Below, in pieces: positions 1,614 to 25,819 of a DNA stretch of 64,000 nucleotides. This DNA is from Naegleria gruberi (Eukaryota). Location of the stretch: NCBI GenBank assembly GCA_000004985.1, contig GG738876.1; one strand, 5' to 3'. The notes beneath the pieces were generated by a model. The model was given only the letters and a program-made list of their open reading frames with translations. It ran no database searches and had not been told where the DNA came from. The translations under genes and the position numbers were made by a program. Each line of letters starts with the position of its first letter. The first letter of the stretch is position 1.

Positions 1614-3056
1614 TTATTGAGAATTTTGATGTTTCATAACCAAACCATGAATCTTTTTAACTCTCATTTCCTTGAGGAATTCCATCGAAAGTTTGAACCT
1701 GTAATGAGAATCCAACATTACAATTTCAATTTCCTTCTCCAAGAAATCAAACAAATCGTCTGGAAGCGACGAAATTTGACGATTCTTATACAATTCAATT
1801 TGAAACAAAACATCATGTGTGGACTTCTTATCAATATTTACAGATTTAGGGCCATTAACATTCAGGAATTCTTCATATATTTCCTGAGCTAATTGGAATT
1901 TCTTTGCTTCAACAACTTCTAATTCAGTTTCGAGTTCTTGAGTAGTTGAAAGATTTTTCTTTCTCTTGGTTGTTGGTTGACCAACACTGAGAGAAGTATT
2001 GGATTTGGAAGACTGATCAACAACAGAGATGGTGGAAGGAGTTGCGTTATTGGAAACTTCAGATAATTCGAAAGAAACGCTACCTAAACTATTAGAACTT
2101 TCAGTTTCTTCACTCAATGTTTGAACCAATTCAATTTGATATTCACACAATCGCTTGTACTGCTGAACTTTTTCAAGGAATTCAAAGTTTTCAGAGTTAA
2201 ATTCCTTCTTACAATGATTCTTAAAGAGATTTCTCAATCTGTCATTATTCATGGTGTGTGAAATGTCAACTGCTAGTGCTTCTCTTAATTTTTGAACATT
2301 GTTGGAGTCTGATCTAATAGCCAACCCAAAAACAAAGATAATGACTGGAACTGTAACTACAACTGCCAAGCAAATAATTGATAATGAAGTTATGGACATA
2401 GCATTAGTGATTTTTGACACTTGTTCTTGAGAAGCAAGTACATAATCAAGTACAACATCTTGTGCAGTTCTAAAAGTGTTTCTTCTTGCGATATAAGTGG
2501 CGGAAGTAAGCAATCGAACAGCTTCCGTAAAGTTTCCATCTCTAATATTCGAAACAGCTTGAGAATCAGTATCAGTCAAATAATTAACAATTCCCTGCAA
2601 ATTATTTCTATACTGCTGCGAAATACTCTGAGGTATCTTTTGAAGCATATTTTCAGTCAACTCATCATTCACTTTCGAATAATTATTATAATAAGCCAAA
2701 TATCCCTCATTTCCCGAATAGGCAGCCACCAACGTATAAGCTTGAATATAGGCAGTATACGTAGATACCTTCGCTCTAGTAGCCAACAAATCAATATCCT
2801 CATTCATCTGACTATTTTCACTATAAATCAGCAAACCAAGGAGAATGAGGAAAGTAATGGTATTGAGGACCATGGCAACCATTGCAAAGATTTTAATGAA
2901 ATTCAATTCGAGTTTGAAGAAACAGCAGTGGACTGTGAAGGTTTTTGGCTGTTTTTGATGTTTACGAAAGGAATCGTCGAGAGAGGATTGCTGGCGTTTG
3001 AGAGGAGGTGAAGATTCAATGCTTGTTTCGATTGGTTTCTTTGTTTCGTTTTCCAT
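1614..3056 (-). CDS. RGS-domain protein with an N-terminal two-transmembrane sensor-like region
   Basis: The C-terminal half matches the RGS fold. [18 protein letters not shown] matches [41 protein letters not shown] matches [44 protein letters not shown] matches [24 protein letters not shown]. Two hydrophobic helices ([20 protein letters not shown] and [26 protein letters not shown]) flank a predicted extracytoplasmic domain of about 150 aa. Confidence 0.65.
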   Translation of the reverse strand: [480 protein letters not shown]

Positions 3057-3980: not shown

Positions 3981-4970
3981 ATGCAAAATCATACTTCACA
4001 AGTACAGGGTGATTCTTTCTCATTGCCACCTTCTTCATCACCACCACCACCACCACAAGAAGTCTCTACACAACAGCAAACATCGTACTATTCATGGAGT
4101 CCAACTAGTCTTTCAGAAGCTGCCAAACAACAGCAAACAGAGTATTACAGTGGAGGTTCTCCAAGCTATTCACCAACTTCACCGAGCTATTCACCAACTA
4201 CACCCGTCTATGCTCCAACTTCACCAGCATATTCACCAACTTATACTCCAACCTCTCCTTGTTATTCTTATACCTCTCCATATTATAGTACGATTTTTTA
4301 TCTTCCGAGAGAGACAGTGCTGAGTTTTGATTTGGATCAAAGTGTATTGGAAAGGATTGAGAAGGAAACAAGAAATTGGGGAGTGTTGAGGTGGAGAAAT
4401 CCAGAGTTGGGTGAAAGATTTTGGGGACATGTTTATATGAGTGTTGATTCAAAGATTGTGGAAATTATTAGAGAACATTATGGACCGAAGGGATTAATTA
4501 CTAAAGTTAGGGAATTGTTGGGAGAGGTAGGAGAATCGCACTCTACGGTTGAGTATAATGCATTCTTGTTGCCAACACATTTTACTGTAATTGGGAGTAA
4601 GGAGTGGCAACAGGCATTCTTGGGATTGGAGAAGGAGGTTGAGTATTTTACAGTTAAAAATCCTGCAGAAAATGTATTCGAAAGTTCAATTGAGTTTGTG
4701 AATAGTCCATATAAGAGTTATTCAAAATTGTTTAAGGAAGAGAAAATTCAGGAATTGTGCAATTTTACCTATTTTACAAGATCTGGATTTGCAAATTCAC
4801 TTCCCAACGAAATTGTATCCCACATTAAACAATTTCTAATCATTGATCTGAAAGAAAGTGGACGAAAGGTTAAATTCTCAATCACTGGCCAAATTAGTTT
4901 AGTTCCAAGACAGTTTGGAGAAAAGCTTGGTTTCATTCTCCATGTCGATTGTCCAGAAATGAATAATTGA
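3981..4970 (+). CDS. Hypothetical protein with an N-terminal poly-Pro segment and 4-5 degenerate RNA-Pol-II-CTD-like heptads ([31 protein letters not shown])
   Basis: This is a long ORF. The heptad repeats are read directly from the translation. The C-terminal 200 aa are non-repetitive and have no family I recognise. Confidence 0.45.
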
Positions 4971-5238
4971 GAGAGAATACGGATTCCAAAGTATGGACTA
5001 TTCCATTCCTTTAGGACTTGATTGGCGTGATTACAAGTATCCTCAATTACCAAAAAAGGTAGTTATTAAGAATTTTTCAAAGAAGAGAACTCGTGACACA
5101 TTTGAAGAATGCAATATTAAATAAAATCTAAAAGCTTTTTAATAATCCATTTTGGTGGAAAACAAAGCAGTATTATTGGAAACTATTTAGAATATTGATG
5201 ATAAATAACACTTGAATAGCAATTTGTAATATTTGAGT

Positions 5239-6048
5239 TTATTCGAAATTTAGATCATCATAACATTCCACAAATTCATCAGAATACCAAAGTGCTCTGA
5301 GAAGAATCTTTCTTGGAAGATTCATCATTTCAGCTTCTTTCAACATTTCCTCAACAATTTGATTCAATTCCAATAGAAATTCTCCCATTCTGTCATAGAG
5401 TGAAGAATTGACTGATAACTCCTCAAGATGATTGGATGCTCTGTTCCAAGCAACTACAGCCTTGTTGAATAATTCATCTTCTTCTCCTACTAAACTGGAA
5501 TAGGTCTGAATAACTTCACTATATTTGTCAAGAACTGATCTTTTGGCCAACTTGAAACTTCCTTTTCTGTTGATGGAATCAATTAATTGGACCAGTTTAG
5601 TTCTGTTTTGTTGAGAATGTTCTGCTGGAGAGTTCAAAACACATTCACAATAATCAATCATAAGTTGGTCAACTGGAAATTCTGGAAGTGGATGCTCTAC
5701 AAAATTGTTGATTTGTTTGTAAACTTGATTTTGTAAAGTGATGAGGGAATAATCTTTTGGAAATAGCTCTTCACTCAAGTCATTTAACATGATGAAATTC
5801 TTTCTCTTCTTTCTACTACTTTCGAATGGTTTAAAAGAAACCTTTGCATTTGGAAAGAGTAATCTAAATGCAAAAGAAATGCTTCCACACACGAAAGGAT
5901 GAGATTCAGGAGAGTGAATCAAATTAATCTGATTAATCTTGGATGGAATCTCCTGCAATGCATATTTAGCAATGTGAAATAATTTGAAACAACTTTCAGA
6001 AATGGTCAACTCTTCACAATTTGGAAACATTTTAGCAATTTGCTTCAT
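5239..6048 (-). CDS. Hypothetical protein. It may be the C-terminal part of the upstream F-box/LRR gene, separated by a frameshift.
   Basis: The 269-aa ORF starts 4 nt before the stop of ORF 6045-6905 in another frame. The overlap of only 4 nt leaves no room for an intron. Confidence 0.35.
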   Translation of the reverse strand: MKQIAKMFPNCEELTISESCFKLFHIAKYALQEIPSKINQINLIHSPESHPFVCGSISFAFRLLFPNAKVSFKPFESSRKKRKNFIMLNDLSEELFPKDYSLITLQNQVYKQINNFVEHPLPEFPVDQLMIDYCECVLNSPAEHSQQNRTKLVQLIDSINRKGSFKLAKRSVLDKYSEVIQTYSSLVGEEDELFNKAVVAWNRASNHLEELSVNSSLYDRMGEFLLELNQIVEEMLKEAEMMNLPRKILLRALWYSDEFVECYDDLNFE

Positions 6049-6905
6049 TCTAACCCCTTGTCCTTGAAATCAAAATCAAAGTCACCAACTGACAATTTCT
6101 TGACACTTGGCAGTATCTTGTCAACTGAACCAAGGTAATCAACTTTCAAGGTACATGGATTGGAATGTACATGTTCAATAGATGGTACACTGATACTTTC
6201 CATATTTTTGGCACAAGGTGGTACTTTGAAATTTTGTTTTTGGTTGAGGAATTTGACATTTCTGAGATTTCCAATACTTGCTTGAACTAATTTACAATCT
6301 TCTTCAGAAATTGGAGAGTTAAAGACGAGTTTTCTATATTGGGATGATTTCATATCCAAGAATTGAACGATCGAATTGAATGGATTGTGTTCTCTTTGGT
6401 AAACATTCTTAAATGAGATGGATGATAAGGTTGGGGTAATTCTGACAGGTTGTCTCTTTGGCAGTTGACTTGTGTCACATTGGCTATTGCTGAAATGCAA
6501 TTTTCTTAAATTGCAATCATGTGGATTGAGAATGGAGAGTAAAATTCTTGGATTAATTTCACATCCTTCAAATTCGAGTTCTGTAAAACGATTGATAAGT
6601 GACACATGCTTTTCCTTCAGCTGATCAACACCTGACAGTATCAGCTTGGCATCCATTGCAAATTTCTTCAATCCCAAATAATTTCCAACACATTCAATAT
6701 CTTTAACTGTACAACAAGTCAATTCTTCCCTTTCTCTCAACATTTTCCTAATATAGGATTGTTGAGAAGTAATTCCATCACATGCTCGATGACACAAACC
6801 AACCATTCTTCTCAACATGATCAAAATTGCATCATTTGGAATGAAACTCAATATTTGACATGCAATTTCTGGAACGAATAGAATAGAATAATTAATAGAA
6901 TGCAT
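6045..6905 (-). CDS. F-box protein with leucine-rich repeats
   Basis: N-terminal EIACQILSFIPNDAILIMLRRM resembles an F-box. Downstream periodicity is LRR-like (LNPHDCNLRKLHFSNSQCD...). Confidence 0.4.
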   Translation of the reverse strand: MHSINYSILFVPEIACQILSFIPNDAILIMLRRMVGLCHRACDGITSQQSYIRKMLREREELTCCTVKDIECVGNYLGLKKFAMDAKLILSGVDQLKEKHVSLINRFTELEFEGCEINPRILLSILNPHDCNLRKLHFSNSQCDTSQLPKRQPVRITPTLSSISFKNVYQREHNPFNSIVQFLDMKSSQYRKLVFNSPISEEDCKLVQASIGNLRNVKFLNQKQNFKVPPCAKNMESISVPSIEHVHSNPCTLKVDYLGSVDKILPSVKKLSVGDFDFDFKDKGLE

Positions 6906-19077: not shown

Positions 19078-19150
19078 CGCCCCACGTGGGGCTCGAACCC
19101 ACGACCGTTGGATTAAAAGTCCAACGCTCTACCGACTGAGCTAGCGGGGC
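19078..19150 (-). tRNA. tRNA-Lys (anticodon UUU)
   Basis: The reverse complement is GCCCCGCTAGCTCAGTCGGTAGAGCGTTGGACTTTTAATCCAACGGTCGTGGGTTCGAGCCCCACGTGGGGCG. It folds as a cloverleaf with a 7-bp acceptor stem, a GTTCGAG T-loop, and anticodon loop CTTTTAA. Confidence 0.85.
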
Positions 19151-25746: not shown

Positions 25747-25819
25747 TGGAGATGCGGGGTATCGATCCCCGTACCTCTTCCATGCTAAAGAAGCGCTCTA
25801 CCATGTGAGCTACATCCCC
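25747..25819 (-). tRNA. tRNA-Ala (anticodon AGC)
   Basis: The reverse complement is GGGGATGTAGCTCACATGGTAGAGCGCTTCTTTAGCATGGAAGAGGTACGGGGATCGATACCCCGCATCTCCA. The acceptor stem has a G3:U70 wobble pair, which is the alanine identity element. The anticodon loop is CTTAGCA. Confidence 0.85.

Follow-up and report, generated by a model that had tools for sequence, protein, structure and literature searches.

CTD-type heptads joined to a putative 2H-like domain in a Naegleria gruberi protein and its Vahlkampfiid relatives

Tandem heptads of the consensus YSPTSPS, which make up the RPB1 subunit's carboxy-terminal domain (CTD), are usually regarded as a hallmark of RNA polymerase II (Pol II) alone; the known CTD mimics are single, loosely similar motifs. 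The present study concerns a Naegleria gruberi gene at positions 3981..4970, plus strand, of a 64-kb stretch of nuclear DNA (contig GG738876.1; hereafter the window). Its product carries a tandem array of such heptads in front of a domain that does not belong to the polymerase. As in the RPB1 CTD (PF05001), the heptads stand in tandem and follow the same consensus, the region is predicted to be disordered and the encoding DNA is a slippage-prone 21-nt repeat. The hierarchy of constraint is also the same, Y1, P3, S5 and P6 being kept and position 7 being free, as is established for the Pol II CTD. On the other hand the array of Naegleria and its relative Willaertia is N-terminal, unlike the C-terminal CTD of RPB1; it has 1-8 units rather than tens, and it sits on a ~230-aa 2H-like domain with no polymerase domains. 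The known family that this domain most resembles is Pfam PF22547, '2H-SAK', of the 2H phosphoesterase superfamily, which also includes LigT/ThpR, CPDase, Usb1, Acb1 and the viral 2'-5' phosphodiesterases.

Two described systems come near to this arrangement. Yeast Trf4 and Sen1 have CTD-mimicking Nrd1-interacting motifs (NIM) which dock on the CTD-interacting domain (CID) of Nrd1 (PMC4186968, PMC7110113). A CTD-like peptide on a non-polymerase factor of RNA metabolism lets that factor use a CTD reader, and this is the closest functional analogy to what is proposed below. However, the NIM is a single short acidic-aromatic motif imitating the bound conformation of the phospho-CTD, whereas the Naegleria tail is an authentic tandem of YSPTSPx; the lineage and the attached domain are different, and the reader of the NIM is the Nrd1 CID while the partner of the Naegleria tail is only postulated. 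The C-terminal repeat region (CTR) of Spt5 is a second tandem-repeat platform outside RPB1, phosphorylated by CTD-type kinases and read by the capping enzyme (PMC4066402, PMC4787787), but its repeat unit and consensus are others (e.g. nonapeptides in fission yeast) and it belongs to a universal elongation factor, not to a lineage-specific 2H-like protein. Motifs that resemble or mimic the CTD are already known on RNA-metabolism proteins. In the literature searched, no description was found of a 2H protein with CTD heptads, no paper on the Naegleria/Willaertia family and no mention of 2H-SAK.

The open reading frame (ORF) comprises 329 codons in an uninterrupted frame, and its product is 100% identical over the full length to N. 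gruberi XP_002675725.1 / NAEGRDRAFT_69096, annotated as 'predicted protein'. It is a real N. gruberi gene; protein database searches found no independent assembly that carries it. Read in the register that starts at Y1, residues 56-108 (nt 4146-4304) are YSGGSPS / YSPTSPS / YSPTTPV / YAPTSPA / YSPT / YTPTSPC / YSYTSPY / YSTIFYL, that is, one perfect YSPTSPS, five units with 5/7 consensus matches, one partial unit of four residues that breaks the register and one junction unit. An earlier note on this stretch had seen the CTD consensus in a string that corresponds to aa 62-93 (nt 4164-4259), and this string does lie within the array. Its statement that the host protein is not RPB1 also holds, as a Pfam search detected no RPB1 domains in the 329-aa protein; the raw ORF gave no Pfam domain of any kind. 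PF05001 itself matched neither the window protein nor the isolated array at E <= 10, and reached 19.1 bits against a cut-off of 20.3 on one relative (P0063). The array is thus CTD-like but not a CTD: its heptads agree with the sequence definition, while the contextual marks (RPB1 domains, C-terminal place, PF05001) are missing. With (YSPTSPS)6 as tblastn query this locus was the sole match in the window (E 2.5e-18), and tblastn revealed neither a second heptad array nor a second family member there.

It could be argued that a region rich in Ser, Pro, Thr and Tyr will resemble the CTD whatever its order. The in-register consensus score of the array is 11, and the maximum among 20,000 shuffles of the N-terminal 110 aa was 5; when only the S/P/T/Y-rich 50 aa were shuffled, the maximum was 6. 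Because the score beats all 20,000 composition-preserving shuffles, the order of the array is not a by-product of composition. At the DNA level Tandem Repeats Finder reports a period of 21 nt with 3.8 copies and 80% match, the spacings between repeats being 21, 21, 21, 12 and 21 nt, and the array grows and shrinks through 21-nt slippage. The N-terminal extension of this copy grew via local duplication, which has left two degenerate heptad units upstream of the array (Table 1). A PPPPP tract, which the earlier note placed before the array, is present, although some 30 residues separate the two and the N. gruberi paralogue P0002 lacks the tract; it is specific to this copy and probably incidental.

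These repeat features are the basis of the view that the tail is generic low complexity, i.e. a disordered S/P/T/Y-rich N-terminus that expands and contracts by 21-nt slippage and serves at most as a flexible spacer or as a generic region of proline-directed phosphorylation, its CTD likeness being convergent and without a link to Pol II. We consider this rather unlikely, though it has to be taken seriously. The array is a DNA-level tandem repeat, the further duplication of 57 nt lies just upstream, and the copy number varies from 0 to 8 among relatives. Moreover, a word-indexed search of 5.8 billion proteins returned, beyond the protein itself and one paralogue, hits that match in the heptads only. 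Most were RPB1 fragments, and a few were non-RPB1 proteins with YSPTSPS arrays: P0023, P0041, P0053, P0054 (with Slu7, PF11708), P0057 (with synaptobrevin, PF00957), P0058 (with a RING finger) and a Mytilus 'USP7', P0032 (MATH/USP7). As these proteins are unrelated, such arrays would arise repeatedly. These scattered proteins share CTD-type heptads outside RPB1 with the Naegleria protein, but they have other partner domains, they are single, unvalidated and mostly metagenomic gene models, which may be real fusions or chimeras, and none of them shows conservation of the fusion across genera.

It is the conservation of the fusion that sets the present case apart. When 1.84 billion cluster representatives were searched exhaustively with a HMMER profile that left out the repeats and was built from aa 105-329 and the paralogue, only seven proteins matched, and two follow-up searches enlarged the set. 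The family has two members in N. gruberi, the window gene and the paralogue XP_002668973.1 (P0002), and further members in N. lovaniensis (XP_044555082.1), N. fowleri (FDP41_013157) and Willaertia magna (three or four genes: KAL9656493, KAL9652861 and KAL9656908 / KAL9656807, the last two being nearly identical), besides two environmental lineages seen in metagenome contigs. In the databases searched no relatives were found outside Vahlkampfiid amoebae, and scanning of JGI metagenome contigs and IMG/VR viral contigs found none either. Full-length relatives measure ~290-350 aa, and all lineages but one have 1-8 heptads. The N-terminus reads YSPTFPY YSPTSPR YTPTSPN in P0063, YSPTTPY YLPSSPP in N. 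lovaniensis, YSPTSPY in N. fowleri, YEPTSPI .. YTPVSPS in W. magna P0069 and YSPSSPA YAPS in the N. gruberi paralogue; P0067 / L004 and W. magna P0065 also have heptad-bearing N-terminal sequences, and W. magna P0066/68 has no heptads. The search of related genomes that the earlier note had advised thus came out positive, heptads and domain being kept together across Naegleria and Willaertia.

In every heptad-bearing member the array directly adjoins the start of the domain. Over 23 full family heptads the consensus is Y-S-P-T-S-P-x, with P3 at 91%, S/T5 and P6 each at 96%, S2 and T4 each at 61%, and position 7 essentially free. The low-complexity explanation meets its difficulties here: the motif and not just the composition is kept across two genera, with P3, S/T5 and P6 at 91% or more while position 7 drifts; the order of the array exceeds that of composition-matched shuffles; and its position next to the domain is constant. 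In addition, the sole heptad-less lineage, W. magna P0066/68, has also lost two His residues which all other members keep (WGH to WGN and LH to LP). Because the fusion is conserved in both genera, its retention argues for functional heptads, and the repeats look selected rather than accidental.

The same comparison bears on whether the array is translated. The earlier note had allowed that the region might be an intron that is spliced out. From the ORF structure we infer that it is coding: the frame is continuous, and in two further species and a second genus each orthologous gene likewise occupies one unbroken ORF on a long contig. No in-frame ATG stands between the array and the start of the conserved domain in any member except P0063, whose only such ATG sits inside the first strand; therefore the heptads are translated if the domain is. 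A gene caller began P0062 at an internal Met, and the ORF actually starts at the heptad-bearing N-terminus. The loci are not syntenic, as the neighbours in N. lovaniensis and W. magna differ from those in the window, and nothing in the window matches the gene that lies next to the environmental copies. Two ENA metagenome contigs, L001 (1105-1533) and L004 (1105-1959), hold the same locus and are identical up to nt 1383, after which they show 24 mismatches. L001 has an in-frame TAA at a Glu column and a TGA at a Gly column, and L004 has a TGA at a Lys column, the surrounding family sequence being otherwise conserved. These contigs could be pseudogenes or chimeric assemblies; read-through is less likely.

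The earlier note had called the rest of the protein unrelated. This is right in so far as it is not RPB1, but the remainder is not wholly beyond characterization, for it appears to be a divergent 2H-SAK-like domain. PF22547 ('Swiss Army Knife, 2H phosphoesterase domain') matches 6/9 members at the same positions. W. magna P0065 stands above the curated cut-off (30.4 bits vs 27, E 5e-7), and P0069 (23.7 bits), P0066 (17.8), P0064 (16.4), the paralogue P0002 (13.5) and the frame-repaired window protein described below (14.2) stay below it; the raw 329-aa ORF has no match. Positions 24-50 of the model correspond to IPSHISVI of P0066, the first HxT/S motif, and positions 85-120 to CIFLHVKSPELENIRKKYGFNSTFEFHYTIG, which makes FHYTIG the second HxT motif. 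An AlphaFold2 model of the paralogue's domain, built on a ten-sequence alignment, has pLDDT 70.9 and pTM 0.67; with a three-sequence alignment the result was unusable (pLDDT 33). Foldseek comparison of the model with BFVD ranked first an uncharacterised protein of Yasminevirus, a giant virus of amoebae (A0A5K0UAJ9, E 5e-3, probability 1.0, TM 0.39/0.50), and second a phage 'Swiss Army Knife 2H phosphoesterase domain-containing protein' (probability 0.97). Despite the Yasminevirus match there is no sign of a viral origin of the family, because the viral contig scans contained no relatives.

Three results weigh against a 2H fold. The domain model has no significant Foldseek match in the PDB, the family profile finds among PDB sequences only a spurious EF-hand kinase (E 0.96), and hhalign of the family with a LigT/ThpR alignment built from PDB matches gives a probability of 0.4%. 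The last of these means that the 2H link rests on the SAK model and the fold ranks and not on similarity to LigT. NCBIfam gave noise only. An attempt to equate ITFELP and WGHVY by eye with LigT strand 1 and motif 1 found no support and gave way to the Pfam-based mapping. On balance we regard a 2H-like fold as likely for the family domain. The window protein is described as 2H-like and not filed as a 2H-SAK member because the second motif fails and the Pfam threshold is not reached. A canonical second motif, FHYTIG, is found only in W. magna P0065 and P0069; its position holds FSIPLG or YSIPLG in N. gruberi, FVLCVG in N. lovaniensis and YVVVLG in N. fowleri. Because the motif is missing, the Naegleria members are unlikely to be canonical 2H enzymes; for the module, a pseudo-enzymatic role in binding or scaffolding is more probable than phosphodiesterase activity. 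The conserved histidines of WGH and LH may define a different binding site.

Most members also end in a basic patch (KKRTRD, KKRKL, RKRKL or PKRLKRV) that looks like a monopartite nuclear localisation signal (NLS). The family architecture, as judged from sequence, would then be a disordered N-terminal tail with 1-8 heptads, a divergent 2H-SAK-like domain of ~230 aa and a variable C-terminal tail with the NLS-like patch. YSP-type motifs occur C-terminal of the domain as well in P0063 (YSYTPSFTP), P0064 (RYSPC), P0065 (VYSPRYDP) and P0070 (CYSPYYS), and the domain often appears flanked on both sides by CTD-like fragments.

Taking these features together, we tentatively prefer, with a confidence somewhat short of even, the reading that the heptads are a conserved tail of CTD type for docking or regulation, attached to a 2H-like module that would be nuclear and is probably non-catalytic. 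The proline-directed CTD machinery would write and read the tail as a series of short linear motifs. Candidate writers would be CDK7/9-type kinases and Fcp1/Ssu72-type phosphatases, and candidate readers CID, WW or capping-enzyme proteins. It may bring the 2H-like module, as an RNA-end or nucleotide-binding unit, to nuclear transcription and RNA-processing complexes, or alternatively may put the module under the same kinase and phosphatase control as those complexes. One study describes the C-terminal extension of N. gruberi RPB1 as S/P-rich but states that it 'lacks repeat structure' (PMC3646058). If that account of an RPB1 without regular heptads is right, the present family would carry the most canonical CTD repeats of the organism. 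It is at the same time a caveat on every reading that sees a CTD mimic here, and it counts against the docking or regulatory tail as well. Later work is said to have found that Naegleria does have tandem heptads.

The earlier note had suggested a CTD mimic that competes for CTD kinases, phosphatases or binding factors; as a decoy, the protein would draw these enzymes and readers off Pol II. The near-consensus heptads and the NLS-like patch of the family would suit such a competitor, but against the Pol II tail a protein with six or seven heptads, or a relative with one or two, would be a weak rival unless it were very abundant, and since the heptads are tied without exception to one conserved domain, that domain looks like the cargo. 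The proposal is not specifically favoured, and we hold it to be very improbable. A docking or regulatory tail fits better than a free competitor because the heptads are always fused to the 2H-like domain, usually together with the C-terminal basic patch.

Another way to account for the linkage is an intramolecular phospho-switch, in which heptads phosphorylated on Ser, Thr or Tyr would fold back into the phosphate-binding groove of the 2H-like domain (HxT plus the conserved His) and act as a pseudo-substrate that gates binding of a ligand or RNA end. No linker parts the last heptad from the domain, into whose first strand region it merges; 2H folds are generally known to bind phosphate esters through HxT/S motifs, the loss of heptads coincides with that of the two conserved His in P0066/68, and several members have YSP-type motifs in their C-terminal tails too. 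The idea is nevertheless purely inferential: the AlphaFold2 models have no confident contact between tail and domain, the tail being modelled as disordered, and we know of no 2H protein that binds phosphopeptides. We judge such a switch improbable.

The 3' end of the window copy needs separate consideration. The annotated stop, TGA at 4968-4970, cuts off the conserved C-terminus of the family. Adding back both bases that are missing relative to the family restores PEMNNLREKYGF; one T after 4968 and one A after 4977 restore PEMNNLREKYGFQSMDYS, which fits the family consensus EL..LR..YGF without a gap. The sequence that follows is out of frame but open, and aligns to the paralogue's C-terminus, EYGFQSMDYSIPLG...KNFSKKRTRD vs KYGFKSMEFSIPLG...KNFSKKRTRD (tblastn E 9e-12). 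An intron as the cause of the frame change was ruled out, as the interval from 4960 to 4975 lacks both a GT...AG and the space for an intron. If the disruption is real, the product would lack the last core strand and the NLS-like patch.

This lesion could mean that the copy is a duplicate in decay that is turning into a pseudogene, in which heptad expansion and frame disruption are both neutral. Besides the truncation of the conserved C-terminus by two 1-nt deletions, the copy-specific N-terminal extension with its microsatellite and duplication and the in-frame stops of related environmental contigs would agree with decay. Against it, the in-frame domain, 225 aa long, has no internal stop and shares 78% identity with the paralogue, and the shifted tail of 49 codons is still open (chance about 0.025) and ends at the paralogue's end. 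Because of these last two properties, the lesion would come either from a mistake in the assembly of the N. gruberi reference or from a truncating mutation of very recent date. Decay would also leave the conservation of heptads in the family unexplained, and we give it little credence.

Table 1. Features of the heptad gene and other elements of the window (positions in the window).
Feature	Position	Strand	Remark
PPPPP tract	aa 21-25, 4041..4055	+	in (CAC)6 microsatellite
Duplication, two copies spaced 57 nt, 76% identical	4058..4147	+	yields two QQQT(S/E)YYS..SP units, degenerate heptads upstream of the array
CTD-type heptad array, six 7-residue units and one 4-residue partial unit	aa 56-101, 4146..4283	+	21-nt DNA period
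Junction unit YSTIFYL	4284..4304	+	last Y-anchored unit; passes into the first strand region of the folded domain without a linker
In-frame part of the conserved family domain	aa 105-329, 4293..4967	+	probable divergent 2H-SAK-like phosphoesterase fold
WGHVYM motif	4422..4439	+	W and G in every member covering the column; His lost only in the heptad-less Willaertia paralogues
PTHFTVI, first HxT/S motif of the putative 2H fold	aa 198-204, 4572..4592	+	conserved as H[FIV][TS]V in all members covering the region
ILHVDC strand, family-conserved His	4935..4952	+	aligns to the start of the PF22547 85-120 segment
Frame-disruption site	4965..4977	+	two 1-nt deletions relative to the family (T run, A run) create TGA 4968-4970
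Out-of-frame open tail, 49 codons and stop	4975..5124 (codons 4975-5121, stop 5122-5124)	+	homologous to the paralogue's C-terminus
YSIPLG, second 2H motif position	4999-5016	+	lacks both H and T; out of frame in the window copy
Basic NLS-like patch KKRTRD	5080-5097	+	in the out-of-frame tail
tRNA-Lys(TTT)	19078-19150	-	between protein-coding genes
tRNA-Ala(AGC)	25747-25819	-	between protein-coding genes

The window has a GC content of 33% and dense, largely intron-free ORFs, among them those for an RGS-domain membrane protein, a kinase, an MFS transporter and an F-box protein, and its tRNAs are of the eukaryote type. The product of the divergently oriented neighbour (1614-3056, minus strand) is 480 aa long, has hydrophobic segments besides an RGS domain (Pfam E 2e-8) and shows no evident tie to the heptad finding. 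Two long minus-strand ORFs, 6045..6905 and 5239..6048, overlap by 4 nt, both without a Pfam match; they may belong to a single gene that a frameshift or a short intron interrupts.

The heptad-domain fusion would be a conserved natural case of a transplanted CTD, everything said here about its function being inferred. A wider hypothesis, the 'portable CTD', is that lineage-specific nuclear 2H-fold proteins of Vahlkampfiid amoebae carry authentic Pol II-type heptads so that the machinery of the CTD code writes and reads a non-polymerase module for RNA-end binding or processing. It is speculative and we think it unlikely, but if true, CTD readers would have clients beyond Pol II. Should the tail turn out to be inert low complexity, the case would still be a useful caution on reading function into CTD-like strings. 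With the family, the 2H-SAK phosphoesterases would gain a branch that is eukaryotic and probably in part pseudo-enzymatic; the family occurs in the pathogen N. fowleri, among others, and the databases searched show it in no other eukaryotes. Tandem heptads kept on a different domain across genera are a natural experiment on the portability of the CTD code, and the family, with members that have from one to eight repeats, would show which readers and writers act on heptads off the polymerase and how few repeats suffice.
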